Positions 5,201 to 60,259 of a DNA stretch of 64,000 nt are shown piece by piece. The notes below the pieces were generated by a model. That model worked only from the letters and a program-made list of their open reading frames with translations. It had not been told where the DNA came from and ran no database searches. The stretch is from Microthyrium microscopicum (lineage: Eukaryota), in the NCBI GenBank assembly GCA_010405405.1, contig MU004244.1:933895-997894 (forward strand). Direction: 5' to 3'. The translations under genes were made by a program, and so were the position numbers. Every line of letters starts with the position of its first letter. Position 1 is the stretch's first letter.

Positions 5201-8200
5201 TGATCCGATGGATCAGGCATCTGAAGAGCCTGATGATGCCGCGGCTGAAGCAGAGGCTCTAGATGATCCAGTAGAAGAACCGACAGTAGAGAAAGAGGCA
5301 GCCGTGGTTGCTCCAGAAGAGCCGGCAGCAGAAGAGCCGGCAGTAGAGGACCCAGTAGCTGATCAGCCAGATACTGGCCCTGCTGTGGAAGAATCTACTG
5401 TGGACGAATCTACTGTGGACGAATCTACTGTGGACGAATCTGCTGTGGAAGAATCTGCTGTGGAAGAATCTGCTGTGGACGAATCTGCTGTGGAAGAACC
5501 TGCTCCTGAAGACTCTGCCCCTGAAGAACCTGCCCCTAAAGAACCTGCCCCTGAAGAACCTGCCCCTGAAGAACCTGCCCCTGAAGAACCTGCCCCTGAA
5601 GAACCTGCCACAGAGAGACTCGTGGTAGAAGAACTCGCAGCAGAAAAACCCGCAGCAGAAGAACCCACAGCAGAAGAGCCCGCAGCAGAAGAACCCGCAG
5701 CAGAAGAACCCGCAGCAAAAGAACCTGCTGTTGAAGCATTTGCAGCACCAGAGTCGGGTGAGAGCGCCGAAGCCGAGGATTCTGGCCTAGAACTACCACC
5801 CCCAACGCCCACCGAGTCAGAGGCACCACATGACGATGCTCCTGAAGACGTTCAAGACGCAGGCTCACCTCAACTTCCTCCACCTACACCGCCATCGCCT
5901 ATTGAAAGTGAGGCCGTAGCTCTGGACGCAGATGCAGTCTCAGAGAAGCTTTCAGAAACCGCGGACGCCCCAGTTCTGGAAGAGCAAGAAACTGACGAGC
6001 CGGCTGTAGAGGCCGAGACCATCAAAGAAGAGTCTACAGATGACGATCCACCACCACTTCCGGCCTCAGCTCCTGAGGCAGATTCAAGCAGTGATCCACC
6101 AGCAGAGCCAGAAACCGAAAAGGCAGAAGTCCAAGAGGCTCAAGCAGCAGCACCAGCAGAGCCAGAAACCGAAAAGGCAGAAGTCCAAGAGGCTCAAGCA
6201 GCAGAAGACTCGCCACCCCCTGCTGACGCCACTCCTGAATTGCCGCCAAGCCCAGTGGCTGAAGAAGTAACCGTTGAAGAGCCAGCGGAGCCGGAACCGC
6301 CTGAGATTAATGAAGAGGCTGAAGATAACCCTGCCTCCGAGGGCCAGAGCGCGGAGCCGGAAGCCGAGGCTCAATCGCAAACAGAAGTGGAAGATGCCCC
6401 TGTTGAAGCCCTTGCTGAAGACGGATCGGAAAAAGACGCAACCGATCAGGATAGCAACGACATCCCTGCGGGCGATACCGTCGAGCAAGATGAAGAAAAT
6501 GAAGAAGATCCTTGCCCTGTCGACGACAACCCACCTGCGGACGACCTGAGTAGAGCAATGGAAGAAGATCACGGCGAGACTGAAGCCGATGATGCGAAGG
6601 AATCGGAAGAACAACATGCTGATGAACCAGCCGGAGAAGAATCTGCCGCTCCAGCTGTGGGAGCTCCAGCAGAAGAAACTACTGCCACACAAGCTCTTGA
6701 TGAGGAAGAAATTGTCGACGTTGATGATACACCCAGCGCTGAAGCCGAAGATCATGCTGAGCCTGCTGAGCCTGTTGAGCCTGCTGAGTCATCGGAAATC
6801 GCAGAATCTGCTGAAGAAATTGCAGAGACCGATAATGCTGCCAGTTCCTCAAAGGAGGCAGAGCTAGCCTCGGCTATCCCAGAAGCTGACACTGAAGATG
6901 CCCCCCCTGAAGCTGAGCCATCTGAAGATTCAGCTGTAGCGGAGAGCGCTGAGGCTTCCAAAGACTTCGGTAGTGAAGGCGACAACGAAACTGTCAACGA
7001 CAAGGCTGAAGCTGATCTTGGCGATACTTTGGAAGAGGTCGAAGAGACCGAAGTCTCAACAGAAGCGCGTGATGCGGTCGAAGAGCCAGAAGCTGCTGAA
7101 GAAGTGGACGAGATACCTCCACCTCCACCACCCCCTCCACTTGCTAATGAGGAGCCGGAGCCAGCCCAAGAACCTGAACCGACCAAGGAAATAGCAGAGC
7201 CAGAGTTAGCGGCCGCTTCTGCAATTGATGCCGGTGAAGAAGAGCCGGAAGAGCCCATTCCTGAGCCAGAGCCCTTAGAGGAAACGGAGCCCGAGGAGGC
7301 CGCACCCAGTGAACCCGTTGTGATGCCTGGTGATGAGCCCACAAGTGAACCTCCAGCCGATACAGAGGATCCAACAGAACCGCCAACAGAAGAATCAGTG
7401 GCCGAAGCACCCGCTGAGGATGACCCTGTTGAGCCAACTGAGGCACCCGCTGATACACAAGAGGCTAGTGATGCTCTTCCAGAGGCCCCTGAACCCCCTC
7501 CAGCGCCTTCAGCGGATGATGCCGAGGTGGCTTCGGAAGCTGGGGACAATGGCGAAACTTTGGAAGAAGAAGGAGAAGAAGAAGAAGAAGGAATACCGCC
7601 TCCACCACCACCACCCGTAGAAGATAATGTGCCTAAAGAGGATGAAGATATCCCAGAACCAGCCACTGTGGACGAAGAAGTGCCAGCTGCGGATGGGGGT
7701 GATGTTGCTGAGCCAGCAGAGGCAGTTGCTGGTGAAGAGTCACCCGCAGAAGGAGTAACTGCGGATGAACCTTCACCAGACGAACCTGCCGTACAAAAGG
7801 ATGCTGATGTTGAACCTGAACCTGAACCTGAACCTGAAATCCAACCTGCCCCTGAACCTGAACCAGCCATGGAAACATCCGAACCAGCCATAGAACCCGC
7901 TCCGACCCCGCCGTCGGCTGAGGACGCGCCGCCTTCAGAAGAGAGAGCTATCAGTCCTCTATCAGCCGAAGATTCCCCTGAAGCCGAAAACGAAGTGACT
8001 CCTGAAGTGGCCACAGATGCGACCCCTGAAGCGATCCCTGAAGCAACTCCAGAAGCGACTCCAGAAGAAGCTGAGAAGGAGATGGCAGATGATGGGAATG
8101 CTGAGGATTTGCCTCCTCTAGCTGCTGGTGTAACACCAACAGCTGAGAAACCAGCACATCGCCGGCGTAGACACTCTCACCGTTCCGATCCGTCTAGTCC

Positions 8201-9746
8201 ACGGGAGAACCGCGATCGTCCTCGGCGCCGTGATACTCTTGTTGAGGCCCCTGATAAACGTCAAAGCACTGGTCTATTCGGCCTAGGCATCTTCGGAAGC
8301 TCCAACAGTCGGCCCAAGGAGAAAGAGAAGGCCCGTGAATTAAAAGCTCGTGAGACTACCAAAAGAAAAGAACCTTCGGCGTTACCAAGCAAAATACTAA
8401 CACCAGCTGAAGAGGAAGAACAACGTAAGAGGCGTGAGGCACGCAGAAAGGAAGAGCGCCGAAAGCGTGAAGGGGATAAACCAAAGAGTGAGTCTAGCAC
8501 CACCAAGCCTATTGAGGAAACGCCAGAAGCTCGTCCTAGCACGAAAGATGAGGCGAAGGAAAAGAAAAAAGCTGACGCTGAACGAACAGCGTATGAACGT
8601 GGAGAGGCTCGTCGCCTTGAAGTTGAGAAGGATGCGGAGCAGATCAAGAAACGTAGCCAGCGGGACGACAACGACAAGCCGACCGAGTCCGATTCTAAGC
8701 CATCAGAGAAAGACCTGTTAAGGAAAAAGCGCGCCGAACGAGAATCTGCACGACGAGCGGCTGAAGAAGAGGACCAGGAAGGTGTTCGCACCAAGTCTGA
8801 CAAACCAAAAGATTCCTCTCCAGCTCCCAAGCCACTCAAAGAAACAGGACGGCGCCATACTACACGAGATCTCAAGAATGATGGTCTTCCTCCCAAGAAG
8901 CCTGGACTTAGTAGGTCTGCGACTCTTGCTACACCCACCAAGTCCACTAGTCTACTCGGCAAATTATTTGGTCGCAATGACACTCCGCCCATGCCGGTCC
9001 GATCTTCTAGCCGAAGAGAAGTCCCTCGTGCCACAGAGAAAGCTGCAGTCAGATCGCCAAGCCAGGAAGCAGCTCGGCGTGAAAGGAAACGCGAGCGCGC
9101 ACTCAAGGATCTGGAGGCAGGCGAAGGATCGTCAGCCGAAAAGAAGTCATCCAAAAGTGGTTCTGAGGGCGACAAAGAATCCAGGAAAGCAACGCCAATC
9201 CCAGAATCGACCCTAAAGGAAGTGCCTGAAAAGACTGCAAAGACTGCAAAGGAATCTCCGACCGTCAAACCGAAAGATCGACCAACATCCCGCCGAATCG
9301 AAAGTGAACGTACTCACAGACGTAGCCCTCGAGTTGAGACTGAGCTGCCACGATCCAGTAGACGAGACCCCGCCAAGACTGATTCGCGACGAGAGCGAGA
9401 ACCTCCGCGTGATGAGCTCGATGATCGTCCCCTTCGACATCACCAGCACCGACAACATCGAGACCGTGAGCCCACAAAGGAGAAAACTAGAGAGCGAGAA
9501 AACCGCCGAGAAGGTAGCGGTGCAGAGAAAGATAGCAAAGGAAAGGAGAGAGACACCCCTCCTTCCAGCAAGCCAGTGACACCCCGTGCCTCCGAAAAGG
9601 AGCGCGAACGACGTCGTCGGGATAGAGATGACCCCGAGCGCGAACGCAGACGGGAGAGAGATTCTCGAACACCACGGGTTCGAGACAAGTCCCCAAAGAA
9701 GAGCGGAGGACTGTTTTCCTCATTCAAACGAACGATGACGAGCTGA
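2225..9746 (+). CDS. Very large (~2,490 aa) Pro/Glu-rich low-complexity protein; exons 2225-2878 and 2925-9746
   Basis: ORF 2213-3193 and ORF 2961-9746 join in frame through a 46-nt phase-0 intron 2879-2924 (GTAAGC...GCTAAC...TAG). The product has poly-Pro runs, EEPA(P/A) repeats and a Lys/Arg-rich C-terminus; no recognisable folded domain. Confidence 0.8.
5380..5730 (+). repeat. Coding 15-bp tandem repeat array (VDEST/VEESA/PEEPA/AEEPA units)
   Basis: Repeated units such as ctgtggacgaatcta, cctgaagaacctgcc and gcagaagaacccgca are visible directly. Confidence 0.85.
6097..6204 (+). repeat. Exact 54-bp in-frame tandem duplication (PAEPETEKAEVQEAQAA)
   Basis: caccagcagagccagaaaccgaaaaggcagaagtccaagaggctcaagcagcag occurs at 6097 and again at 6151. 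Confidence 0.85.
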
Positions 9747-11620: not shown

Positions 11621-13749
11621 TAGGGAATAGGGAATATGGTGGGTGGCATCAAGATATAACAAACCAGGAACAATGAAGTGGAGACACGCTCTTGACAACT
11701 CTGGCTGTAGCTCCTGCCTTGAGAAGTACTGGGGACTAGTAACTACTACAGTCAGTACATACTACATGGGAAAGTACTACCCCCCTGAAGAGGCAGTGAC
11801 GATACAGAATGTTCCCGGATGTAGAAGGAGACAATTAAAGATGGGAAAGTGCCATATACGCAGCCCACATGTGTTACCTCTGTTTTATTAATTTATTTTC
11901 TCTTCTTCTTCTTCTTCTTTCTCTTTTTCTCCAAGTAACGTCAATTGTGAGTAATGCGCTTGATACTATCTTGAAGTTGTGTTAACTTATACAGTAAAGC
12001 TCTTAGACATGTTCACAGAATACGCCACCAACAACACCGCCCTCGCCGAACTCATCTCTCTCCATCGCAAGCTCCTCTCTTCCAATGAGGAATTGCTTGC
12101 TGCCATTAAAGGCATAAGTATGTACCGCCTTCTTTCTTTCTACCCTTCAAAGCAATGGGGCAACAACACTGTCCACGCTTACGGCAGTTGCTGTGTACTG
12201 TGCGTGCGTGCCTCATGGAAGACTGCTTCGTTTGCCAATGCATCTCTCGCATGAAGAATGAGGCAGCTTCGAATTCCTACGACGACTGCGATGGTAGCAT
12301 TATATGGTCAAGGAAATCCGTTGCTATTCCGATTCTTGGCCTCCAATTCGCTCTCCGATTCTCTCTTTCCCGATTAAGTACATACTAATTGCTATATAAG
12401 GTTCTATTCGACAAATCCTCGAACAAATCGGGGTCGGCCTTGCTATTTTGGCCATTCGTGGAGTCTGGAAAGGGCTCATCAAAGAGGGAGGATGGGGTGG
12501 GGGGGTGTGATTTTGGGAGCGATTTGGGTAGGGGTGAAGTGGTGTGGAAAAGGACTTTGTAAGTTTCTCCATCCTCCTTGCCCAATTCCAACTTCATGAT
12601 ACGTTCCCACGGCATTCGATAGCAGACATCGCCCTTGATTGATGGCTTGCATCACAGTTGAAGGCATCTGTTATGTTTGATGATTCATATTGCACCTCTC
12701 TGGCAACTATCACATAGGATGACCCAGACCCAAACTGGTGATTACCAACATATCTGATGCCTCACATCGCACTTGAAAGATCCCAAGAACTTGACGTCTC
12801 CCATCGGGCTTGATGGCGCCCATAGCATTCGATAAAAAGCTAATACTTCATAGGTAGTTGGATTGCGGGTGTCTTCCGAGATTTCGTGAAAGCGGTCGAC
12901 AACTGGATGGCCAACTCGTGGTACAAGAGAAGGGTGGATACCATACCGCTGACCTCGGTCACAATCCAACCTGAACGCGTGCCATACGAGTTGGCCATCC
13001 AGGCGCGCCCTCTACCACCACCAGGTAAGCTCTTCCCGAATGGCGTTTCATCAATTGCTGGGTCCCATATCCAATGCGATGGCTCCGGTCTGATGGAATC
13101 GACCCTCAAACGATATTGAAAATATTTTGACAAGTAATGCTATCGCATTCGAGATACTTGCTTGAGCTATCACATCGGATTTCATGGATCCCATCGCATT
13201 CAATAACTTTGAAACCAGTTTTGTGGAATCTTATACTGACATTTTTCAGCTCCTCAACGCCCAGCACCGGCTCCACCAGCACCACCACTACCACCACTAC
13301 CACTAGAGGAGGAGGAGGAGATGACGACGATGATAATAGAGAGCTTCGCTTGCGAACAGTTTATAGACACAGTCTTTAACTCGATATTGATAATACAATT
13401 GTATCATATACGTACAAACCTAATACCTACACCTCAACGCTAGTGCTAGGTTAGATCAATATAGTAACGGTAGATAATCCATTAGGTAACAGTAGCTAAG
13501 GCTACCTAAGATCTCGCTAAGGCCACTTCAGAATTAGCTAAGGCCAGTTAACAACAGCCATATAAAATCACTCCTAGTGAATGCTCTCTTAGCCAACACG
13601 AGGCAGGAGCAACTATTTAGTAAAGTTCACGTATTAGAAAACTCGATATTTGCCTTATCTCAAAATGATTATGGATACATGAAGAGTGTCCAAATTGAAT
13701 CACAACATTGCTTCCACAGTGATGCTGGAAACCAACTTTCTCTATACCC

Positions 13750-20920: not shown

Positions 20921-21383
20921 TCTGTTTGCCTAGGCGCCAACATCGATCATGCAACAGAGTGTGCTTTCCCTCCCATCGTACTCGATAATTGATAGCAGAC
21001 TCGATCACAGGGAACAGTGATATAGATCGAAATACTTCCGTCGTTTCGTCAATGTTCCAGGAGAAGGACGGCCAACAGCAATCTTTGAGTCCTATAACAT
21101 ATCTCAAGCAAAAAAAAGTGCTACCGATTCCTCAATAGTAATTTGGATGGAAATACGATAATAAAAGCAAAGGATCTAACTCCGAACAAAGACTTTTTAT
21201 GACAAGGAGGACTTTTTAAACACTTTACGACGAATGACTTGACGAAAATGGGCAAACTCAGTGTAAGCAACCTTCAATACGAACACTTCAGAACCTTTAA
21301 TGTCTACTAGAAATATCCGCAGACCCAAGCATTACTTGTTCAATCTCACTTATTCTGCCATCTTCACACCTTTAACGTTCAGG

Positions 21384-23862
21384 ATGTCACCAAATCATTG
21401 GGATACAGGCTACATACCAGATACTTTCGACCCTCGCGACCTGCCATACTACTTCAGAGGAACCGATTTAGACCTCCAAAACTTCAACGGCATCCACAAC
21501 CATGTGATTCTGTACGAAAAGTATCCATCGTTTTTCGAGCCAATTTACGACCAGGCCAATACGAAGTCTAGTGTTGCCAATGCTGTAGCTGCTGCGGTAC
21601 GCTTTTTGGCGTGGAAGACTGGTCAGACTGATGAAGCACTGCTTGATCCGTCGAGGCTGTTCATCTACTACAATGCTCGTGCGATTTTGGCGTTGAAAAA
21701 ACTCCATGCTCTGAAGGCGTTTGCGCCGACGTGGCCTTGCGAGGTGGAGGATACGGGTTGTTGTATCAGGGATGCGTTAAAATCATTGAAAATGTTCGGG
21801 AGTGCGAGTGAGGCTGCTTGGCCGTGGGTAGAAAATATGGGTAAGTCATATTTCTGGAGGGCCCTATAACGATGATTGAAAGACGCAGCATGCTCTTATC
21901 GAGTACGATGGTACACAGGGAGGACGGCATATACTTTCATCAGCGCCCGCATTTCCTTGCTAATAAGTTCAGGTCTCAAACCAGGCAGCCCCGTCGCTGG
22001 GAACAGCCTACAGAGCTTCACTGTTGGTTTGAATGATTGCCCATTAGACAGGGCGTATGCCGAGGGCGAAGCCATCACTCAGACTATCAAGTTTGAATAT
22101 TGCCGGCTGGATCCAGATCACCATCCCGCGATTAGCTCGGCTCTCAACGATACTGATAAATGGACTATTGGGTCGCTGACCCTCAACCGCTTGAAACAGT
22201 GTCTGGTGGAAGGATACCCAGTGATCTTTGCTTTATCAAACTACTTTGACCATCCCTGGGAATCAGACGACGTTAGTCGCTCCAGAGAATTGGAGGGCAA
22301 GCCGCCATGGCTAAAAAAGCTGCTGGGTGATGACCAAGGTCCTCCTGTAGATTCGAGTGGAAGGGCGATTGCATTGAGCTCCCATGCCGTCCTGGCTGTG
22401 GGCTTTAATGATGAGACGAAGGGCGTGCTCGTACAGAACTCTCGAGGTAACTTTCTCCCGTGCAAAATCACATTCCTTGACGAAATCGGATGGAACCATA
22501 ACAGCCATACCTTCCAGCGCACTTGATGGCTACAATAGAATGCGATGGGTGTTTCATGAATCCACCACGAAAAGATCATTTGGTCTTTTCAGGTAGCTCC
22601 GATCGTAATGTTAACTATACTGACGAATTCTAGGCAATCTGAACTGCTCTCATTTCTGGATACCGTACGACTACATCATTAGTTATTGGGCCAGCAGCGA
22701 TTTTTGGACCATTCGTCCTACTAACTCAATGCTTCAACGTGACCCTGCATGGGCTACTCTCAGAACGAAACACACAAGCTTCACGTCCCCTTCAGGTTGG
22801 ACTACACTTTTCAGGGATATCGATGGAAAAGTGGCTTCTGTGGCAACGAACACCACTTGTCCTGTTATCTGTCGTACGACGAACAGATCAGATATATTCT
22901 GGATAACATCAAATGGCTCAGTCGAAGGCGTCTACAACAATGGTGATATTTGGTGCAGATATCAGGGTGAAGGCCCTGGGAACGCGGCTGAAGGTGCCAT
23001 TGCTGCAATTTCAAGAACACCCACAAAGATGGAAGTTTTCTGGATTGGTCCAAGGGGATCGGTTGAGGGCATGTACCTCCAAGAGCAAGGCTGGAAGTGC
23101 TGCCGCTTCTCTGACGAAGGCACTGTCGAGAGAGGCAGTGGCATCACTGCGCTCAGCCGTGACAATGACCTCAGTGAGTTTTGGTATGTCAGAACAGATG
23201 GTGGCATCCAAGGCGTATTCTGGGATAAAAGCAGTGGAAAGGGAAAATGGGAAAACTACGAGTTGGCTGGCGGCCACAGCACCACTAAACAGTCTGCGCT
23301 TGCAGCTTGTAGCTGGGACGAAAACCACATGGCAGTGTTCTGGATCGCAATGGACGGAAGCATCATGTTTAGGGAATACAATTCCTTGAACCAAGGCTGG
23401 ATGGCATCTTCACCCACTCGAATTGGACAAGCCAGCTGCGCCGCTCTCCAAAGCCGTGTTACGGTGGTAACCCGATCTCCTGGGAATTATGAGCTCTTCT
23501 TCATTTCACCTGCGGGAGTGGTTCAGCACTGGTCAAAGAATAGCGACACTAAATGGGAAGGCCGCCAGCTAGACAAGGAGCGGCTTGCTCGAGTGGATAG
23601 TGATATCAAAGCGATATCTACTGCCAACGACCGTCTGCAGGTGCTTTGGGTTGGCAACAACAACTCTCTGGTTCTGTCAAATGTTCACGAATACCGGCCG
23701 CTGGAACCAAAACTGCATCCTCTGCTTGCCCAACCAGGACAAGTGAAGCCTGGGAGCCCATTAGCCTTGTTCTGCCGAAAGACTGATGCTGATGACGACT
23801 TGCACGTCAGTTTTACGACGCATGAAGGAATCATGGTTATCATGAAGAAGTCAAATGAGTAG
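21384..23862 (+). CDS. Papain-like (C1A, xylellain-type) domain fused to a fungal fucose-specific-lectin-like beta-propeller, ~719 aa; exons 21384-21840, 21973-22446, 22634-23862
   Basis: Both phase-1 introns splice in frame. C1A motifs: GYIPDxxDPRD, YDQ..SSVANA, SRLFIYYNAR, HAVLAVG, QNSRG, FWIPYDY, DFWTI. The C-terminus has repeats of type xAxSRxxxxxEVFWIGxDGSV. Confidence 0.8.
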
Positions 23863-46266: not shown

Positions 46267-48030
46267 TCAAACGACATATCCCTTCGTTTGTTTGATGCCG
46301 GCGACATTAATATCTCGCCATATTATGACCGACGCAAACCCAACAACCCAGACCGCAGTAGCAGTGATCATCATGTTCTTCTGCGCGTCTCCATAGGCAT
46401 GCTGAATCGCGAGACGGGTGGGTGAGCCCACTGGAAACGACAGCTGCGTCACAATATCCTCGTATATCATAGCCAAGTTGGGAAGATCATCAGGAGGAAG
46501 GTATAAAGCCAACTTCGTGGGCAGTGTCGCCTGCCAGATTGCCGCGGATATGGTCAGGCCAACGGCAGAGCCAATGCTGCCAGACATTCCCAGGACGGCT
46601 ATGCTGACAGCAAAGTATTGGTGGTCTGCGGCGGCAGCCATGATAGCGATTTCTGGACCGACCATTATAACGCCGCCTGACACAGCGAGGAAGATTTGGC
46701 ACATGACGATATAGCCAATTGCTTGGTCTGGGTCGTGGTATTTGATCATAATGCCGAGGCCAAGTACCGCCATAGGAAGTCCAAGATAGAGGGTGACGGC
46801 CTTGTAGCGGCTGGTATAGGAGATTATGGCACCGGTCATAATGGCGAAGAATATGCTGGCGACAGGGTAGATTTGACTGACATACGTGGCATGTGCAACG
46901 TCCAAGTCGTTGACCACTTGAAGGACGGAAGTGAAATACAGACCCCAGCACGAATAGCTGAGGAAGAGTGTGAAGGATACGATACAGGAGCCGAAAGCTG
47001 TACGATCTTTGAGAATGCGCCATGGTAGGAAGGAAACTTTGGCGAAAAATCGCTCCCAGATTCCAAAACCGAGTAGAAGTATGACGCCCACGACCAAAAA
47101 TCCGATAATTAGGGGTGAGCCAAATCCCTTGGCTTGGAAAGTATAGAGATTAAACGGTAGGGTGGTGAAAGCAACACCAGCTGATAACAAGAAGAGGCCA
47201 ACTACATCGAATTCATGGATGTAGTAAAGCAAAGACTCAGAAGGTGTGCGTCCGCTCTCGCGCTTCGGGATGATCCCCTGTCTTTTGGCCGCGTTAAATT
47301 GATACATAAACAGGCCGAAAAGAGGAAGAGTGACGACTGGAATGAGGATGCTCTCCATCCCAAAAGCCCAACGCCAGCCAGCTCCGGTGAGGAATTTAGC
47401 AGCAATTGGACCTGCTGCCCAAGGTATGACAACCCACGGTATGTTGACCAGACCTTGCATCAGTGCTCGATGGCGCAATGAAGTGGTATCTGCGACAAAG
47501 ACACTAAGGCTGTATCCTATACCATTGATGCCAACAGTATAGAAAATCTGCGATGCAGCATAGGCCTTGACATTGTTGCACGCGGCTGACATGATCAACC
47601 CAATTGTTGCAGATACAACACAAACTAGGAATCCATGTGGCCGTCCAAAGATGTCCAGCACTTTGGCGATGCTGAGATTGGTAACGCCGCCGATGACTGC
47701 GCTCAAGATACCAGTGGTGGGTGTGAGGGAGTGCTCGGCGAAGGCGGAGGTGACATATGGAATGAGAGCTCCACTGACGCCGCTAACCAGAGCTTGAACA
47801 AGATAGATAAGAGTGATTAGAACATAGGCACACACCAGCGAAGTCTTTGACCAGGAGATGGTGATGGCTTCGATGTCCTGGACACCGGACTGGTATGTGG
47901 TGTTGATAACATCGTCCTTGGACACGATGTTGACTAATGAGACCGTGGCTGATTCTGCTTGAACCTTTTCTATGTCAACATTGTCGATGCGGGATTCGGC
48001 TACCACAACCTGGTGCTTGTTGTCGTCCAT
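46267..48030 (-). CDS. Siderophore-iron transporter (SIT/ARN/MirB-like MFS); start 48030 or 48042
   Basis: GVQDIEAITISWSK, PYVTSAFAEHSL, AKVLDIFGRPHG, VFVADTTSLRHR, WRWAFG, GSPTRLAIQHAY. Confidence 0.88.
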   Translation of the reverse strand: MDDNKHQVVVAESRIDNVDIEKVQAESATVSLVNIVSKDDVINTTYQSGVQDIEAITISWSKTSLVCAYVLITLIYLVQALVSGVSGALIPYVTSAFAEHSLTPTTGILSAVIGGVTNLSIAKVLDIFGRPHGFLVCVVSATIGLIMSAACNNVKAYAASQIFYTVGINGIGYSLSVFVADTTSLRHRALMQGLVNIPWVVIPWAAGPIAAKFLTGAGWRWAFGMESILIPVVTLPLFGLFMYQFNAAKRQGIIPKRESGRTPSESLLYYIHEFDVVGLFLLSAGVAFTTLPFNLYTFQAKGFGSPLIIGFLVVGVILLLGFGIWERFFAKVSFLPWRILKDRTAFGSCIVSFTLFLSYSCWGLYFTSVLQVVNDLDVAHATYVSQIYPVASIFFAIMTGAIISYTSRYKAVTLYLGLPMAVLGLGIMIKYHDPDQAIGYIVMCQIFLAVSGGVIMVGPEIAIMAAAADHQYFAVSIAVLGMSGSIGSAVGLTISAAIWQATLPTKLALYLPPDDLPNLAMIYEDIVTQLSFPVGSPTRLAIQHAYGDAQKNMMITATAVWVVGFASVIIWRDINVAGIKQTKGYVV

Positions 48031-49551
48031 GGCTGTTAGCATTTTCTTGTGGAGTTGTATGTTGTCAAAACTCTGAAAAACTTCGCCAGTAGAAGCCAAC
48101 GAAAAGCAAAATGATCAGTATGCGAAAAGTCCCAGGATCGGCGAACTATTAATACATGGTTTGAACTTGAGCAAGACCAGATTGAAGGGTCAACAATCCT
48201 TTAAGCCCATGGTCCTCACGAATGAGCAAAAGATGCTCAGTGACTAACTGTGGTTTGCATTAGGCTGAGTTGATAACAGGCTAAGACGCGCGAAGGATTT
48301 AATTGCCTCTCGCTTTTACAATTACACGAAGTTTACTCGTCAGGATAGAACTTCAGCCAGATACGGCAGTATTCTCTTCATTCATAAGATACCATTTAAG
48401 ATTTGAAGTAGAGCAAGACTAATCAAGCGGTTGACAGAATAAATGTTGCGTTCCCGTCAAGTATGTTGTCGAATCCATGCTATGCTTTAGGACTGCGTGT
48501 TTTATTGCCCCTTGAGTTCGTACAAAAGTTAGTTGTCTCTCAAATGCGTTCGAAATGAAAACTTCTACTGGCTATAAAGTCTGATGGGAGACACCATCGT
48601 TGATGGGAGCGCACCATTTGATTTGTCAACCGTGGACTGATGAGCTCAAATGCGCTGGTTTTCAACTTGGCTTGCACTGTGCAGGGCATTTGCTGTGTAA
48701 TTAACCCCTATGCAGAATTTGTTGGGTATAGAATTATTTTCATCTTATATATGGGCCTTTTTAAAGGACTATCCCTAACTACCTATATCGTAATTTAAGA
48801 TTAAGATAGTAAATTTAAGATTACTTACTATTTATTATAAAGTTTGTATATAAACCTACCTTATTATAATCTACTTATAAATCTATATCTTTTTATTTAG
48901 GAAATATACTATCTAAGCTTGTTACTACTATAAAGTGTACCTAGTCTTTTATCTTTTAATAAATATAATAAGAACCTACTAAAAATCCTTAAAGCCTAAA
49001 TAATAAAGCTAAAAAAAAGTATAATATTTATATAGACTAGGGTAATAATACCTTAGTACCTAATACTAACTAACTAAAACGTAGAGCTAAGCTTAATTAA
49101 TATATATTCCCTACTCTTCTTATCTATTTCTATTTAAGTTTAATAGGGGTCCTTTATTTATTTTTATAGTATTATAGCTAACGGTTAACTATATAAGTAT
49201 AAGTAAGATTAATAAAAGGAAGTTAAGCGTAAAGAATATAAGGCCTAGTTTAAATTAGCTCTAAAAGCTAAAAAAATAGTACTACTTAAGTTAAAAGCTA
49301 AATCTACGCTAAAGGCTTTACTAATAAAGAATAAGGTAAAATTTTTAGTAAAGTCTATTATATAGGAAGATTCTAAAGATAAGAAAAAGATTATTTAGTA
49401 GTAGAAATATAGCTACTTAATAATAATAATAATAAATAAATAGAATATAGTAAAATTAGCTTATATTAAAACTAAATGTATAGTATTTAATACTAGCTAT
49501 ATAAATAGTTAGTAAGAGTTTAATAAAAATACTAAAAAAGAGCTTAGGAAT

Positions 49552-50880
49552 AAAGAGGGTAAAGAGAATAAAGAGAATAGTAAAGATAAATTAGGTAGTA
49601 GAGTTAAAAGTTTAATAGATAAAGAACCTATAGATTTTAATAACTTGCTAAAATTTATAGAGAAAGAGCTAGATAATTTAGTAAAGTTCTTTAAAGAGAA
49701 GAAGAAAGCTAATCTTAAAGAGCTATAGAAGACGTTTATTAAGGGCTAGAAGAAGTATAATAAGACTAATAGATCTATATTAGACTTAGACCCTATTAAT
49801 CTTAATACTAGTGACGTACTCTTAGCTCTAGTTAATTATATTATTAACTTTTATATAAAGTTCTATAAGATTAAGCCTAGTTCTAATATAGGAGGTTTAT
49901 TAATATATAAGAATACTATTAATAGTATTATATAGTAAAATTTTAGTATTATAGTAATTAAGAAGTAGTATATCTTTATAAAAAAGTATACTATAGAGTA
50001 AAAATATAATACTAAGACTATAACTATTTATTAAAGATCTAACTATCCTAAAGTTACTAGTATAATAAAAGACTCTATAATACTTAGCTTTAATGCTAAT
50101 ATCTTTAAGCTATAAATCTAAGTATTAGATTAATATTATTATATAAATTAGTTAAAAAAAAGTATATATTCTATTATTATTAAGCTATAGCTAGTAATTT
50201 AACTAAAGTTACTTACTAAAGTAGTTTCTACTATAAATATTAGAAGTAATACTTACTTCTTATTATAATAATAGAATAGGCTTACTAATAAATATCTACT
50301 AAATAGTAAAAATAACGCTAAGAAGAAAGATAATCTTATTACTATCTTAATATATAACGCTTATACTTAAGAACGTTATCCTAACTTTTGCTACTACTAC
50401 TTTAAGAATTCTAATAAGTAGTATTTTATTATAAATAGTCCTTAGCTTTAAATATAGAGAAATAATATTAATAGTAGTAATGCCTCTACTAAGAATCTAC
50501 CTATAAAGGTTCTTAAGTATTTTTAGAATATTTAGCTTATAATTAGTAGTCCTTTTATAATTATAAATACTTATAGTACTAGAAAGCTATAAAGCAAAAT
50601 ATCTATATTAAGTACTTACTAGTAAGAACTAGAGAATATTATAGAGTAAATAAGACTAAAGACTATTAAATATAAGAGAAAAGCTACGCGTAAGAAAACT
50701 AAGGCTAATAAGAAGCGTTATAATTATTAGTAAAAGATTAATTATTTAGAGCTAGACGTAAAGAAGAAGTAAATTAAACGTAAAAATAAAAAAGCTAATA
50801 GGTAGGCTATATAAGATAAACGTAAGTCTAATAAATATAAGGCATAAAAGAGATATTATAATAGGCGTTATAATTAAGAA
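49552..50880 (+). pseudogene. RIP-destroyed reading-frame relic(s) inside the TIR element
   Basis: Codon-periodic stretches (KEPIDFNNLLKFIEKELDNLVKFFKEKKKANLKEL*...; KRKATRKKTKANKKRY...) broken by TAG/TAA stops of the kind RIP makes from CAG/CAA/TGG; family not identifiable. Confidence 0.45.
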
Positions 50881-53800
50881 TAAGATAATAGAGAAGTAGC
50901 TTTAGCTCTTTAGTAACTACCTATTTAATTATTATTAGTAAGCTACTTTTAGTTTATATATCCTCTTAATATTCTTTATTATAAATCTTTATAAATATAT
51001 ACTCCTTTATAGTAGGCTTATTAATAATTTATATATCTTTAAGCTTCTTCTCTTTTATTAAATTATCCTTAGTTTTAACTTCCTTAGGATTATTATAATT
51101 ACTTATTATTAATAGTTCTATAAGTCTTACTATAGGCTTTATTTTTATTTGTTTAAAATAACTTAGAAATATATATTAACGTAGTATCTTATACTATAAT
51201 ATTAAATTCTTCTTCTGTCTTAGTTTCTAAACCTTATTAAAAATGTCTACTATAGCTATAAATTTAAACTACTTTATTAGAATATAGTTTTAAAAATACT
51301 ATAAAAAGGTAACGTAAGGCTTTAGTAGTTACTCTAATAAAAGCTATTACTTTAAAATGCTAAACTGCTTCTCTATAAAAATAACTACCTATTACTAATA
51401 AGGGCCTAATTATTAAAATTAAATTAAGTCTTATTATAATATCTTTTATATCTCTATATACTAAACTATACGCATTATCTTTAGTACTAAAAATAATTAA
51501 TACTATATAATTATTCTTTTTCTATATTACTTAGTTTAAGCCTATTAGTAATAATAAAGATTAAGAGGTGATTTAAGGAGTAGTAGACTAGTATAATATA
51601 GATATCCTTACTCTAGAGGTAAAAAGTACTTAAAATAGCAATCTTGTTTACTATATATTAGTAAAGGTAAAAGTTTAGAAATTAATAATAGTATAGATCC
51701 TTAGCGTTATTAAGCGTTTTAAGGACTAGGTTATTAAGAAATAGCTTACTAATTAGGAAGTTAGCGTACCTAATAATAAAGAAGATAATCTTATTTTTAG
51801 GAAGTATTACTTAGTAGGTTAATAAGTTCTAGGTAAGTAGTAGGCGTAGTGGTTAATAATAGAGTTAGGGGGTATCTTTTTACTAACTTAAGCTTGTTCT
51901 TATTAATTTATAAGCGGTTAATTTACTAAAATCCTACTAAAGTTATGTCTATTATTATATATTTTTCTATCTTTTACTTTGCTTCTACTATTTTATATTT
52001 ATAATATATCTTATAATTATTTCTTTTATTACTTATTAAAAATAATACTTTTAACTAACGTAGAAAAGATTTAGAAAATTAAATTATTTATTATAGTGTT
52101 AGTAGTTTAGTATTAGTTATAATTAAAAACTACTCCTAAATATCTTATTTATAACTATAAATTTAAGTAAATAATAATTTTAGAAATAATTAACTACTAA
52201 TATCTAGTCTGTTTCTATTACTACTGTTCTCTATTCTAAAACTATCTATAAAAAACTATTTTTATAAAGTAGAAATATTAAATAATACTATAATTTTATT
52301 ACTATCTTTTAATAATTAAAACTACTAGTAAGAAGTTATTTATATAAAGTAAGAAGGTTAAATAATATTAGATTCCTATATCTAAGCCTCTAAAACGCTT
52401 AGTTATATTATAAAAGTTAATAAAGGTTATAAAGAGTTATAAAAAAAAAAAGTAAAGCGTAGATGTTATACTAAAGTAAGAGGTAGAAGGACTTAAGGAT
52501 TAGTATTAGTATTATAGAGAAAGTAGGTTATAAGTTAACTATAAAGAATATAATTAGAGTATAATTCTCTTTAATAGTTAGGATAGCTTATATATTTATA
52601 TAAATCTAGCTAGTTATAATTATAAGTATAAGTTATTAAATAAAGTTAAGTATTACTTATAGGAAGATAATCTAAGTACTAAGTACTATAATAATATAGT
52701 TAAGTAATATAATAAAGAAAAAGTACTATAGTAAAGAATTCTTATATATTTAAAGAAGTAAAGGAGTTTTAGTTAAGTAATATCTCTTTAGAAAATTAGG
52801 CGCTATAGGTAATTACTATCTTATATATAGCGTATCTAGTATTAATTAGTAGTAAGTCTTAAACCTATATATTAATTAGAAAGTAGTCTATACTAGTAAT
52901 AATTTATAAATTCTATCTATAACTTAGTAATATATAAAGATAATAAAAATATTAACTTATATTAGAATTTATTACGATTTAATAAAGTAAGTAATAAATA
53001 ATAGGATTAGAAGGGTTAATTATTATAATATATAAGCTATTAGGCTTATAGTAATAAAATCCTATAGTATTACTAATAACGTTACTAAGATATAAAATAA
53101 AAGGGCGAATATTAGTTAAGCTATTATTAGTATTAGGGATATTACTATAGCTTTTAAAGCTAAAGATTATATTAAGAACTAACTAGTAGTATTAAGCTTA
53201 GAAACTTAAAAAACTATACTAAGGGTTAAGAACTTGTAGATTAACTATAATAAGATAATTTAAGATTATAAAGAGTAAATAGAGTAAATAAAGTAAGTAT
53301 TAAAATAGTTAATAATATAGAAGGGTATAGAAGTAAAATATAAAGTATTATAGAAAAGTTCTTAATAAATATTATATATAAAGTAGTTTATAAAAGTAAT
53401 AGAGAAAACTAAGAATAAATAAGACTTTATAGGCGTTAGAATATATAAATACTATTACCTATTACATTTTAAAAAGTTATAATAAGAATATAATAAAAAG
53501 AACTTACTAATAAAGAGTTACTATTACTTATAATTAGACGTAGGCTAAAATATTAAACTCTCTATACTAGTACCTTTAGTATAACCTAATGCCTAATTAT
53601 AATAATAAGGCCTATAAGATTAAGATAACTATAATAGTTAGAATAGTAATAAGGAAGATATTATAGATTATAATAAATAGATAAAATAGAGCTACTATTA
53701 TAGCTAATAATATAAAGATCTAAAGATATAATCTTATACTATATTATAACTATAATAGAAAAGAATTAATATTATATTTAGATACGCTAATAAGAGTAAT

Positions 53801-55049
53801 TAGTAAGTAATAGTAACTATCTATAGTAATAGACTAGTAGAGATTAACCTATTAGGTTAATTATAATAGGTAGGTAGTAATATACTTAAGATTTATATAC
53901 TAGTATGTATAATATTAGCTAGAAGGTAGTATTTAGTATAGTCTCTTAGATTTTATAGTTTTATAGTAAAATTACGAAGTCTTATAATATTAAGGGAGTA
54001 AATAGTAAAATAATATAGCCTAATTTTTTAGTAGGTTTAATACTAAGCTACTATTTATCTAATATTTTATATTATTTAATAAAATAAAGATAGGGTTGTT
54101 TAGAATATTTATATAAACTATAGATAGTAAATATAAATAAAATATATATTATAGTTAATATATAGTAAAGCTAAATAGAAATATATAAAAAACTAATATA
54201 TTAATTATAACTAAAGAGTAATATACTACTTCTAGATTTTAGTAAGGGCTAAATATCTTCTTTAAAAATACTTATAATATATATTATTTAGATTAATATA
54301 GCATATTAATATCTTTAACTACTAAGGCTATAACTTTATAAAGATATATTTATAAATAGCTAATAATTATCTCTTATTATCTATACTATAATTATCTATA
54401 TATCTTATTATTACCTAAAGCTTTATAACTATTAAACTTTATCTCTAAATATAATCTTATTACTAGCTATTCTTAATATACTATACTTACCTTATACTTA
54501 TAATTATATAGTAACTTTATCTCTTAGTATAGTATATCCTATTAATTTAATATATATAATAATATTATACGCTATAAGTAGCTAGTAGTTCTCTCCTTAG
54601 TATTTATATTCTTAGTAATATTATCTTATATTACTAATAAATTATATTATTAATATTAAGGCTAGTATAGATAATAGCTTTATATAATACTATTAGTAAT
54701 TCTTAACTTCTCTTCCTTAATACCTAAATACTATATAACTTTAGCTATAGTAAATTAGGTATTTACTATTCTCTTCTTTAATACTAAGTAGTATACTCTT
54801 ACTATTTATCTTCCTATTAGTAAGTTCTTTACTCTAGTCTTAATATTAAGATTATATAAATCTATTCTTAGATATTAGTACTTTATTACTACTAATAAAT
54901 TACTTATTAGTATATAGTATAGATATAGAGGCTAGTTATAATAAATATATCCTAATCTAGTATTACTTAGTATAAAAGGAATATAAAATCTATTCTTTAC
55001 TTACTATTCTTTAGTACTTCTCTATCTTCCTTATTTAATACTTATCTTT

Positions 55050-55622
55050 TGTGACGCCGCAGGGCGATCCCTACCTAAACGGCTCAACTAATGCAAAAAG
55101 TACCGTAGTGTCCAAGCTCGGACACTCCGTGGGATCGCACGTACATATTCTGCACGTCTTGGGAGCCGTTACGGGCTCCCACGGCCAGCATCTCGCTGCC
55201 GTACGGAACGCTCCCGTGACATACGCTCCTCTCTTCAACAAGCCTGTCCTCAGGCGATTATATGTACGCAACTTCCAGCAACGGGCTCTCTGTCCTTTGA
55301 CGACGTCATCGTGTTCGTCACGTGACGCGAGCACTAAGCAAATCGTTATGCTTTGTAGGCTGTCCAGTTCTGTTGCCTCTGCACGAATCGAACCCGCGAC
55401 CTGCGGGATTCACAGACGACAGGGGTAGTACTGGTTGAGCTTGGACACTTTGTGACGCCGCAGGGCGATCCCTACCTAAACGGCTCAACTAATGCAAAAA
55501 GTACCGTAGTGTCCAAGCTCGGACACTCCGTGGGATCGCACGTACATATTCTGCACGTCTTGGGAGCCGTTACGGGCTCCCACGGCCAGCATCTCGCTGC
55601 CGTACGGAACGCTCCCGTGACA
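55050..55622 (-). mobile_element. Non-autonomous mini LTR retroelement (TRIM-like), 573 bp: LTRs 55050-55221 and 55451-55622, 229-bp internal region, TSD TCTTT
   Basis: Two identical 172-bp TGT...ACA direct repeats; TCTTT at 55045-55049 and 55623-55627; minus-strand PPT GAAGAGAGGAG abuts the 3' LTR. Confidence 0.92.
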
Positions 55623-55860
55623 TCTTTACTAATATATTACTTTATTACTTAAGTTAACGCTAGTTTACTATTCCTATTCTATTATTTTTTTATTTAGAAT
55701 AACTTATTCTTTAGTATCTATACTATTAATAAGTCTCTTCTTATAATATTATATTACTAGCTTTAGTAATCTACTATAATTTAATAATAACTAGGATCTA
55801 AATAGGATTTTAACTCTCTTAGTAGTCTACCTCTATATTATATCTATAAACTATAAGTTA

Positions 55861-56220
55861 AGCTACTCTCTAGTATATATTCTCTTAATCTCTCTAGTTT
55901 ATTTAGGTTAAGTTACCTTTTAGTATATATTTTCTTAATTTCTCTAGTTTATTTAGGTTAAGCTGCCCTCTAGTATATATTCTCTTAATAATATTATTAA
56001 GAGAGTTAGGACTCTATACTTTATAGCTTATTAGATTAACTCTAATTTAGTTTTAAGACTTAGAGCTATAGGACTTTATTCCTTATAAGGTGCTATCTTT
56101 ATATTATTTTTATAAATTATAGGTTAAGTTGCTATTTAGTGTATATTCTCTTAATTTCTTTAGTTTATTTAGGTTAAGTCATTATCTAATATATATTTCC
56201 TTTATCTCTTTAGTTTATTT
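55861..56220. repeat. 50-bp minisatellite (two blocks, ~4.6 units) inside the RIP'd element
   Basis: Unit ~agctactctctagtatatattctcttaatctctctagtttatttaggtta at 55861, 55911, 55961 (partial), with two further units spanning 56121-56220. Confidence 0.75.
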
Positions 56221-59109
56221 ATTAGAACTTTACTAATTCGCTTTTCTAAAAGAATATTATAAGAGGTTAGGCTCTGCTAGCTCGCTATTCTAAAAAGAAT
56301 ATTAAAAGAGCTAGGACTTTACTACTACTAGATTACTACTATTTAAAAGTAGTAATAAGATTTTTAAAACTCTTTCCTTACTAGTACGCGCCTTTACTAT
56401 ATTAAAAAATACTATCTTCTATATAAGACTCTAACTTCTATACCTTTGCTTTTATATCTCCTATATATTACTAAAGTATATAAGAGTAAAGGCTTTAGCT
56501 TATTAGCCTTATATTTAAGATGATAAGGAGTTCTATTAAGACTCTAGTATAGTAGTTAACTTCTTTTATCTAAATAGACTAAGAAACTATATAAGAAATA
56601 CTAGTTAGTAGTCCTTATTTATACTTACTATATATAGAAGTAGATAAAGACTACTTATTAGCGTAGAATAGCTAATAAGAATAAGGATAGAGAGATAAAG
56701 AATAGTAAAATATTATTTAATAGTTAGTTTATAAGATATAAAATAAACTAAACTACTATATAATATTAATATCTTATAATTATAATATATAAATTACTTA
56801 GTAGTATCTATATTACTCTAAATATTCTCTTTATAACGTAATAACTAATTATTTTATTAATAAAGCTTTACTATACTTTATATCTTATATTTCTAAAGAA
56901 ACTTATAATATATATATATATCTATTCCTTTATAATATAAACTCTTAGTAATATACCTAAACTATCTAACTATAAAGTAATTATAGCTACTAACTATAAC
57001 TATATACTCTAAAAAAGATATAAAGTTCTTAAAATTTTATTATTTATATACCTAATTCCTTTTTATCTAGGCTTTAAGAATATTAAACGTTAACTCTATT
57101 AAATTAAAATTAGAAGAGTAGGATAATAAATAGTGAATAATAAAGCCTATACCCTTTAATAGCTATTCTATACCTAAATTAGTATAAACTAAGATATTAT
57201 TAAGTACTATAATAGGTATATAATCTCTAAACTAATATTATAATATTAGTATTAGTTATATTGTAATTTAATAATAGAAATCTTTTATATTATAGTACTC
57301 TTCTTAAAATCTAGTATAAGGAAGATATCTATTAAGTATTATAATAGCTAGAATTATATATATCTTTCTATAGTTTATATTTTATATTTATTATAAGAGT
57401 TAACCTATAGGCGTATATATATGTAATCTTTAGCTATTTTACTCTTTAAAGATAAACTTATTTAGAAAGACTAAATCTTAAGCTTTAAACTATAATAAAT
57501 CCTAGTAGTATATAATATAAAGCTCTTTACTCCTATTTAGTAATAATTATATAATAGCTTTTATATTCTACTCTCTTTTCTTAAGTATTCTAAATATTAT
57601 AGACTTATTTACTAATATACTACGCTCTTATTCTAGCTAGTGAACTATTTTAGCCTATAATTACTAGCTATATAATAAAAGATATTATAATAAGGTATCC
57701 TTATTTACTAGTTTAAGTTATAAAAGCGTTTTATATAGTAGTATCTATAGTTTTTATATAGACTTATATTTTCTTATATTATATTTTTAGTACCTAATTA
57801 TTTATATTAAATAGTATATCTTCTTAATAATTCTTACTTTAGTCTAGTTATATTTAAGATATATAATAGCATAGATATAATAAGTTATATTAATATATAT
57901 TCTGCTTAGTTAATATGCCTAAGTTTATATCTAGCGCGTAGCTATAATATAAGGATCTATAATAGTATTAGTTTTAATAGTTAAAATTAGGATAGAAGGA
58001 GTAGTTATTATAATAAGCACTATATATAGAGGTAAATTAGGCTAAGAATCTAAGGCAATAAAATAATAGTTTAGTATATTTGCTTAGTAACTAGTAAGGA
58101 AAGCTATAGTTTTTAAGCTCTTAATAATATAATATACTATAAGGAATATAGCGCTTATACTTTTAATATATATAATATAGTAGATAGCAAGTAGTAGTTA
58201 ATTTACTATCTTAATCTTATTATAGTATAGATGGTTAGGGATAGTCCTTTAAAAAGGCCCGTGCATGAGATAAAAATAATTCTATACCCAACAAATCATG
58301 TAAAACCAATACCTAGATACCTTAAGAGAAATCCTCACCGTAATTTTCACGCATAATCCATCACATCTGAACACGGTTCGCTGCTAGATACGCGGCATAT
58401 TGCCAGGACTTGCAACGGACCGACAAAGTAAATGGTACCCTTCCACCTGCTACTCTTTGGAACCAGATGCTTTATTTTTCATCGAAAGTATCAAATCGTT
58501 GAAGGTGTAGACTCTTCGACTGTTAAAGCATCGGTTTCCCATCAATCACACTGGATTTCAAGGCTATCTCTCGACGTGAAGTGCGACGGGAGAAATTATG
58601 CCTGTTGGGAGCACCATATTCATCGTGCCAAGTTATCAACCAGTTGAGTGCTTGAAGAAGTCAGTGGATGGGACGCTGCAGACATATATGCAAGGTATTA
58701 GACGCAAAAGGAGCAAACTTGCGCAGCTGCAGCCTGCAGGTCAGTGGTCAAAATCGTGATTAGCATGTTTCTAAATCCTCAACAATATGGACATACAGCT
58801 GAGAAACAATTATCCATACCAGCATATGAGAGCCATCGCCATTGGGATGTGGAAGCTTGCCACCATAAGCCAAGTCAAACTGAGCAAACCAAATCGCGAC
58901 CTAATCACACATCTACAACATCTTGAAAGCTCATGCCATCGCTACATTGGATCTGCTTGTTTGCCTGTCCCATCAAACCTCCAGTGTAATGCCCAGCGAA
59001 ACCTACGAAGAAGTGTTAGCAGCAGCCTTCTATCCCTCTCCTTCTCTTCTCTATTTCTCTTCACTACAAGTGTCACCTACCACCCTTAGATCACTAACAA
59101 GCGGGCAAA

Positions 59110-59562
59110 TCAAATACCGGTTCCAGCTGTAAGCTGCGTGTTAACAAGACTTACAATTCTATCCAAAAGCTCCGTTTCCTCTCGCCGGGCCTCAACTAGC
59201 CTCTGCAAGTTCGTATCATTCCAAGCCGTCTCCTGCTCCCTCGCAGCAAACAGATCCCCTAGTGTCTGAACCTGTTCCTTCCTCAAAAGATCTCGATTCT
59301 TATACTGCGAAGGGAGCCCCTGCATTGTAATAAAGCAGGTATTCAAGTGAACAGCGAGGCGCCGACAATTGCCTTCAAGAGAATATTTCTGGGCTTCCAA
59401 GTTGCTAATTTCTCTTGCAAGCTTGAAGATTTTCGTGGCGATTCCGCCTATTAGGTCAATGTATTCAGGAGATGGTTTAGTCTTGTTGGTGTCTTGTTGA
59501 ACAAGGTTTTTCCAGCCTTGAGAGTCTGGGTCTGACTCGATCTTGATGTCCGGAGATGCCAT
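59110..59562 (-). CDS. Hypothetical helical protein (~150 aa; 3' end uncertain)
   Basis: ORF from MASPDIKIESD with heptad-like pattern; family not recognised. Confidence 0.45.
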   Translation of the reverse strand: MASPDIKIESDPDSQGWKNLVQQDTNKTKPSPEYIDLIGGIATKIFKLAREISNLEAQKYSLEGNCRRLAVHLNTCFITMQGLPSQYKNRDLLRKEQVQTLGDLFAAREQETAWNDTNLQRLVEARREETELLDRIVSLVNTQLTAGTGI

Positions 59563-60259
59563 CTTGGAACTTGGTATCTGAGCTTGGTGAATGTGATGCA
59601 AATCAAAAGAACGCGAGCGATGTCCAAGACGTGGTACCCAAAGTACCATCAGACCAAAGCCTTGCTCTTATATACCAAACATACCACACGATTCACCACA
59701 AGCACAAACAAACAGATCATCCAGACTTTGCACAAACACACAATATCAATTCCTACAATGGTCACAATGTACCTAGAGCCCACGATGCCACATAAAACCT
59801 ATTCACCAGGCCCACAAAAAACCCGCCTCCCATGCCTACGCATCAGCCAATAAAGGATATCTTCGTTGTCCACAAATCATGTAGCCGGTTTTTGTAATCT
59901 GGACACAAATTACCGCCCAGTTTGACAATATCATGTGCCATAATAATCTACAAAAGAGATAATAAAAACAAGAGCAAAGCATCAAGACAAAAATCGCCAG
60001 AACAGCCGGAAATGACAGATGCTTATGGTAACAAGTATGCGAGATTTTTGTTCCCGTGGTGAGTTGACGGGCTAAATCTTACAAGAGTAGCAATGATTTG
60101 CATGGTAAAAACTATGAGTTGTAAACGCCCATACGCGGAAGGGGAATCATGAGGTCAAATAGACCGGGAGTGAGCAAAATAACAGAGTGCGCATAAACTG
60201 TGGTCGAGGAAAGTCAAATAATGACATGTCCATTACTGGCAGTTTGAGGGAGGTGGTGA

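Follow-up and report, generated by a model that had tools for sequence, protein, structure and literature searches.

TRIMs are said to go back to Witte et al. 2001, and among those of plants the Cassandra elements carry Pol III boxes derived from 5S rRNA in the LTR. By definition a TRIM is shorter than 1 kb, has terminal direct repeats of 100-250 bp and possesses a primer site complementary to a tRNA (PMC6934838). As far as the accessible parts of the reports go, fungal TRIMs make up 1229 of the 3248 non-autonomous insertions in Parastagonospora nodorum, where RLX_TRIM_Sinope, a family of high GC content, reaches 793 copies among isolates, and the authors propose that TRIMs escape from RIP by virtue of their compactness (PMC8549362). 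TRIMs are likewise on record in Venturia, some of them affected by RIP (PMC4646964); the accessible text of PMC12543289 holds nothing on TRIMs. The first-pass annotation of the DNA studied here, which regarded TRIMs as mainly a matter of plants and animals, thus understates the fungal record.

The self-priming layout of Tf1/sushi elements, the other system relevant here, has been described repeatedly (PMC4600332, PMC6317226, PMC6934838, 10.1101/2022.12.06.519325), and in the accessible part of the last of these sources the "pretzel" of Tf1/sushi elements is composed of three duplexes, two of which stand beside the primer site. A study of bivalves names self-priming for autonomous elements only. 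In the literature searched, which consisted of main texts and included few subscription papers, we found no description of a self-priming TRIM, nor one of a fungal TRIM with Pol III boxes.

The miniature LTR element considered here is 573 bp long (55050-55622) and lies within the window, by which we mean the whole 64-kb stretch of DNA that was analysed; the features are collected in Table 1. Its two LTRs agree at 172 of 172 sites, begin with TG and finish with CA, and the LTR ends form an inverted repeat in which 6 of 7 positions match. Translated in six frames, the element offers no space for gag or pol. A 573-bp LTR element with identical LTRs, a perfect TCTTT target-site duplication (TSD) and no gag/pol, as first annotated, is therefore what the sequence contains. 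With a length below 1000 bp and terminal direct repeats in the range of 100-250 bp it has the size of a TRIM, and it shares with TRIMs a non-coding character, the TSD and a polypurine tract before the 3′ repeat; the dispersed, multi-copy occurrence of TRIMs, in contrast, was not seen in the sample behind sequencing runs X1 and X3, which represents one strain. The element is TRIM-like by structure, but a TRIM family is not demonstrated. No further copy was found within the 64-kb window, and Rfam returned 0 matches, whether over 48000-60000 at E 1 or over 55200-55630 at E 10. The internal region also contains a perfect palindrome of 12 nt (55316-55327).

Table 1. Features of the 573-bp element and of the repeat that harbours it (positions within the window)
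Feature	Coordinates	Strand	Remarks
Host element	48717..58296	.	RIP-saturated, multi-copy, about 9.0 kb without the insert, terminal inverted repeats of ~100 bp
TSD, left copy (TCTTT)	55045..55049	+	seen in the sequence; one TCTTT between the flanks in a contig of X1
3′ LTR	55050..55221	-	172 bp, identical to 5′ LTR
Candidate polypurine tract	55226..55236	-	11 purines, ends 4 nt ahead of the 3′ LTR
Internal region	55222..55450	-	229 bp, non-coding; one contig with 0 differences in X1 and X3
59-nt piece common to the element and a diverged relative	55330..55388	-	the relative also has related LTR sequence
B-box-like motif	55384..55394	-	1 mismatch to consensus
A-box-like motif	55431..55442	-	1 mismatch to consensus; overlaps the primer site
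Leader arm	55434..55440	-	7 bp possible with U5 55483-55489, -9.0 kcal/mol; covers the last 4 nt of the primer site
Predicted primer-binding site	55437..55449	-	1 nt past the 5′ LTR; 13-nt perfect complement of 55508-55520
5′ LTR	55451..55622	-	172 bp
U5 hairpin, candidate second flanking duplex of the "pretzel"	55456..55482	-	6 bp + 4 bp, 3-nt bulge; drawn by hand, energy evaluated
Predicted self-primer = predicted RNA 5′ end	55508..55520	-	9-13 nt; LTR stretch complementary to the primer site
Hairpin over the predicted U3/R border	55508..55527, also 55107-55126	-	8 bp; putative role
TSD, right copy (TCTTT)	55623..55627	+	seen in the sequence
DDE_3 transposase remnant in the host	57049..57474	-	E 7.8e-6, 26.2 bits, under the curated cut-off of 28.6

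The window is fungal DNA and includes a Fungal_trans domain (Pfam E 3.5e-72), with Pfam matches in 6 of the 9 ORFs scanned. Several of its other features deserve mention. A stop-free frame of 2273 codons (2925-9746) abounds in repeats of Pro, Glu and Ala and has a basic C-terminal part. The RIP index is raised (0.73-1.08) at 13300-13600, where three degenerate 21-nt repeats (13493-13546) possibly mark a small repeat relic. Adjoining frames at 21267-23862 resemble, by eye, a papain-type cysteine protease and, after it, a beta-propeller of lectin-like type; no Pfam match at E 0.001 was obtained with the two pieces of this stretch that were scanned.

The sense strand of the element is the minus strand. 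A plus-strand reading was considered and rejected, because the polypurine tract and the primer site are compatible with the minus strand only. On the sense strand the internal region has a single run of at least 8 purines, the one just ahead of the 3′ LTR. The trait that characterizes Tf1/sushi elements, a primer site complementary to the element's own LTR, is present over 13 of 13 nt, and none of 20,000 dinucleotide shuffles of the LTR matched this self-complement (the best reached 12, with both internal ends tested). Judged by their sequence, the 13-nt primer site and the purine tract probably serve self-priming of the Tf1/sushi type.

Folding of the RNA bears on the same signals. The minus strand of 55400-55525 folds with a z of -2.63, 2 of 200 shuffles being equally good, and the predicted whole RNA with a z of -3.68, a value that 0 of 100 shuffles equalled. 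The two flanking duplexes of a "pretzel" can be drawn with a primer of 9 nt and amount to -18.3 kcal/mol together, though they are placed by hand and differ from the minimum-energy fold, which favours a different local stem in U5. The drawn structure requires the 9-nt primer, since the leader arm overlaps the final 4 nt of the primer site. The 8-bp hairpin at the U3/R border would be confined to the 3′ LTR of the RNA, where it could mask the copy of the primer sequence.

The leader moreover holds an A-box-like motif 36 nt before a B-box-like one, a pair that was noticed post hoc and equalled in 12 of 3000 shuffles and in 1 of 132 background windows. The B-box-like motif alone was equalled in 80 of 3000 shuffles, and B-box matches with at most 1 mismatch occur four times in the 64-kb window. 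ARAGORN reports 0 tRNA genes in the window and Rfam no tRNA in the element, such that neither the tRNA fold nor the family match of a tRNA-derived Pol III element is present. One could imagine a self-priming TRIM that has captured a tRNA-type A/B-box pair in its leader, as a fungal counterpart of the 5S boxes of Cassandra, with the boxes binding TFIIIC and acting as a barrier or booster that keeps transcription going in RIP-silenced heterochromatin. We consider this quite improbable: a Pol III transcript would start near the LTR end and come without the self-primer, U5 contains a run of five Ts, no tRNA fold was found, and a diverged relative of the element (see below) does not align over most of the box stretch.

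The element resides in a much larger repeat, whose inverted repeats match at 55 of their 60 terminal nt, all five mismatches being transitions. No TA duplication was found at its ends. Among 12 frames scanned with Pfam, with stops read as X, 11 were without a match and the DDE_3 remnant was the single one obtained, leaving about 6 kb of the host without any Pfam match. In X1 and X3 the host is represented by many contigs at 80-99% identity, of which up to 9 carry another letter at one place; contigs with different flanks exit it at 58296-58297; and the differences among its paralogues are transitions in 449 of 481 cases (X1) and 412 of 442 (X3). Many diverged contigs, alternative flanks and an excess of transitions identify the host as a multi-copy repeat killed by RIP. 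Just to the right of the insertion (55802-56221) it contains degenerate tandem units of 50 bp.

A contig of X1 meets the right flank at 55622, and its 8 loose letters together with the next base correspond to 55036-55044. It thus consists of the left flank, a single TCTTT and the right flank, i.e., of an uninterrupted target. This contig is probably a paralogous host copy: a contig of depth 334.5 has another letter at 55652, 31 letters from the end of the uninterrupted-target contig, and we infer that the two belong together. Whichever copy of the host it represents, the 573-bp element is a true insertion into a pre-existing repeat.

In the host, the observed/expected ratio of CpA is at most 0.20 in 21 of 21 windows of 401 nt (median 0.06) and the composite RIP index is at least 1.28 in all 21, compared to a CpA ratio of 1.05-1.07 in the element. 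The latter has a GC content of 0.56 and 74 CA+TG dinucleotides, as against 0 and 5 in the adjoining 573 bp on its left and right, respectively; its CpG observed/expected ratio is 1.17-1.19 against a background median of 0.83, and CpG and short inverted repeats are plentiful in it. The GC-balanced, CpA-containing island in RIP-saturated DNA that the first-pass annotation had pointed out is thus evident from these figures. That it also called the island unmutated is right for LTR identity and CpA content and less so for the composite RIP index, which at +0.42 exceeds that of 131 of the 132 non-RIP background windows. CpA is not depleted in the element (36 of 132 background windows are at or below its value) and TpA is mildly high (12 of 132 at or above), and a faint ancestral imprint of RIP is neither shown nor excluded.

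According to the accessible parts of the reports, RIP in N. crassa acts weakly on lengths under about 400-500 bp and hardly at all under about 200 bp (PMC9970103, PMC8549362), the former source giving almost no effect below about 200 bp, and it can extend into the linkers and flanks of paired repeats (10.1101/2021.04.05.438447). A threshold of 155 bp was set aside, as it was not found in the accessible part of 10.1101/2021.04.05.438447. The 172-bp LTRs are below the published lengths, and a pair of them with a unique 229-bp core makes the element a poor target for RIP; since it has short LTRs and no near-identical second copy, its unmutated state needs no special evasion. Evasion by miniaturisation and protection by being single-copy are indistinguishable here. 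A clean element in a multi-copy host suggests that it was inserted after the bulk of host RIP, because RIP can spread to flanks and yet the element is clean, and the identical LTRs, the TSD and the uninterrupted target support the original proposal of a TRIM-like, non-autonomous element that inserted after RIP of its host. However, the clean state does not show that insertion took place after the last round of RIP in the genome.

The insertion had furthermore been called very recent, which is not shown: 0 differences at 172 LTR sites bound the divergence at 1.7% (95%), and at substitution rates of 1e-8 to 1e-9 per site per year this bound corresponds to up to about 0.9-9 million years, such that a very recent event is compatible with the bound, which does not prove it.

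The element is contained in six runs from three studies, and four of them were compared at 80% likeness over 55222-59700, a span that takes in one LTR and the right flank, with the left junction outside it; from this comparison, 16 of 69 loose ends, 25 of 367 pieces and 40 of 489 variants were listed. X1 and X3 derive from one sample, which is probably the source of the window. By contig depth, a rough gauge because contigs drop rare variants, the contig of the internal region stands at 56.5 against 102.4 for the adjoining unique contig in X1 and at 514.1 against 917 in X3. This value of 0.55-0.56x for the contig 55222-55478 may reflect library bias or mosaicism. In the bin 55222-55371, the summed depth (97.0 in X1, 706.1 in X3) equals exactly that of the element's own contig plus one relative (55330-55388), and there is hence no other internal copy at 80% identity or more in this bin. 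A multi-copy family would have been visible, given that the host repeat beside the element reaches depth sums of 607-1323 in X1. Apart from the 59-nt piece, no near-identical second copy of the internal region was found in X1 and X3 at 80% identity or more, and the element appears to be single-copy in this strain.

The relative is joined from 55388 to 55464 in X1 and X3 and from 55609 to 55330 in X3 (at the same depth, 685.6), two joints which place LTR sequence on both sides of the 59-nt piece. It carries a 2-nt indel near 55559 and has no alignment over 55389-55463, and could itself be miniature or full-length. Aligning with 55330-55388 and 55464-55609 in X1/X3, it offers the most promising lead towards a parent or helper. 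LTR-related sequence exists beyond it: the LTR-like depth at 55559 is about 4.2x (X1) and 2.0x (X3) the unique depth, and a contig of X1 joins the LTR at 55455 with loose letters that, among the ends listed, end in TATA where the LTR of the element has TGTG. These are two RIP-type changes at a different site, and this LTR end has apparently been hit by RIP.

The other two runs compared, X5 and X6, show 0 differences from the window, both within the element and in unique DNA. None of the runs with the element is recorded as RNA; X5, which may be one, spans 55276-55619 with 0 differences and leaves 55672-58221 uncovered, while X6 contains the LTR-to-internal junction and two short neighbouring unique stretches at a depth of 2.5-3.8, too thin for any inference on the insertion site. 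Given the 0 differences, X5 and X6 may come from the same strain and then carry no population information. When JGI metagenomes were scanned with the 19-nt junction of LTR and primer site, 2 matches came up, neither with likeness beyond the pattern, and we attribute them to chance; of two scans of viral contigs, one gave 0 matches and the other 1, likewise judged to be chance.

These data bear on whether the 573-bp form ever moved as such. A longer or full-length element might have inserted, made the TSD and later lost gag-pol in place. The single-copy internal region would fit this scenario, as would the relative, which with its LTR sequence and 59-nt piece of 5′ leader could be full-length. 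We nevertheless regard such an in-place deletion as unlikely, since there is no coding remnant in the 229 bp, and since the cis signals are all intact and the LTRs identical, which would force the deletion to predate any RIP of the long element; the relative, for its part, is diverged (by the indel at 55559 and the unaligned 55389-55463) and therefore is not the direct parent. Somewhat harder still to uphold is a currently active, multi-copy TRIM family that outruns RIP by its small size. It is true that the clean copy lies amid RIP-saturated DNA, that related LTRs exist according to the depth at 55559, that the accessible part of the P. nodorum report documents this very pattern, and that the pieces from all three studies are identical to the window, so that other strains are unsampled. 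But no second internal copy of at least 80% identity emerged apart from the 59-nt piece, the LTR end that reads TATA among those listed carries RIP-type changes, and the 64-kb window has no other copy. For this strain, the active multi-copy family first proposed is not supported, the internal region being one contig at 0.55-0.56x unique depth. The first-pass annotation had itself held two outcomes to be adverse to its idea, a unique deletion derivative with no other 573-bp copies and a predominance of RIP-mutated copies; of these, the lack of other 573-bp copies was observed for this strain. One LTR end elsewhere bears RIP-type changes.

The internal depth of 0.55x and 0.56x in two runs of one sample, together with a depth of 1.67x for the element's own type of LTR in X1, might also be taken to mean that the insertion was caught in the act, with only about half of the nuclei in the culture carrying the element, or half of them having it collapsed to a solo LTR. 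This is very improbable, as contig depth cannot be read as a proportion of cells, AT-rich DNA is strongly disfavoured in X3, whose ratio of LTR to internal depth (1111/514) agrees with one ordinary copy, the element has much structure, which can lower coverage, and the uninterrupted target in X1, linked as inferred above to the 55652 variant, probably stems from a paralogue and not from this locus. That the assembly is in error, or that foreign DNA was joined into the repeat, might be suspected because none of the pieces listed (25 of 367) bridges the LTR and the right flank. However, the perfect TSD agrees with the uninterrupted target in the contig, and the identical sequence occurs in runs of three studies that also hold neighbouring unique DNA, which renders an artefact exceedingly improbable.

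With a probability of about 0.68, we therefore read the observed anatomy, insertion, complementarity and low copy number in the probable source sample as those of a miniature LTR retrotransposon that is non-autonomous, primes itself in the manner of Tf1/sushi elements (fungal chromoviruses) and occurs in one copy in this strain. The RNA of such an element would have its start within the 5′ LTR, near 55520-55516 of the minus strand, and would pair through its first 9-13 nt with the site that closely follows this LTR. The primer would be cut off by the RNase H of a helper, presumably a fungal Ty3/gypsy chromovirus that supplies Gag-Pol in trans, and the second strand would be primed by the purine tract. 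The integrase of the helper would then insert the cDNA and create the 5-bp duplication, the target having been one copy of an inverted-repeat element already dead from RIP. The element may have stayed clean because its unique 229-bp core, its pair of 172-bp LTRs and its diverged relatives make no good target for RIP, because few sexual cycles have passed, or for both reasons.

Should this reading be correct, a non-coding element of 573 bp can retain the self-priming signal of fungal Ty3/gypsy chromoviruses, which would delimit a minimal set of cis signals, namely LTR, self-primer, primer site and purine tract, that could be put to the test in a laboratory yeast or fungus supplied with a helper. 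It would also tell which class of helper to seek, i.e., a fungal Ty3/gypsy chromovirus. As a case of RIP evasion the element adds little, for the idea has been published and a lone copy is not a target of RIP anyway.

With Cassandra, the element shares the format of a miniature LTR element and a possible internal signal of Pol III type, whereas the motifs here are of tRNA type, are placed in the internal leader, have modest statistics and are candidates only. It resembles the fungal TRIMs, in so far as their accessible descriptions go, in its length below 1 kb, its repeats of 100-250 bp, its non-coding core that ends in a purine tract and its high GC content in a RIP-active genome. It differs from the TRIM definition, in which the primer site is complementary to a tRNA, in that its predicted primer site is complementary to its own LTR, and it is seen here as a single copy and not as an expanded family. 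From Tf1/sushi elements it is set apart by the lack of gag, pol and chromodomain, and its self-priming is a prediction from sequence alone; yet on the accessible accounts it has in common with them a primer site behind the 5′ LTR that is complementary to the LTR, the TG...CA ends and the 5-bp TSD, and potential flanking duplexes like theirs can be drawn in it as well. Fungal TRIMs that escape from RIP have already been published, and in this light the 573-bp element is a small variant of known biology.
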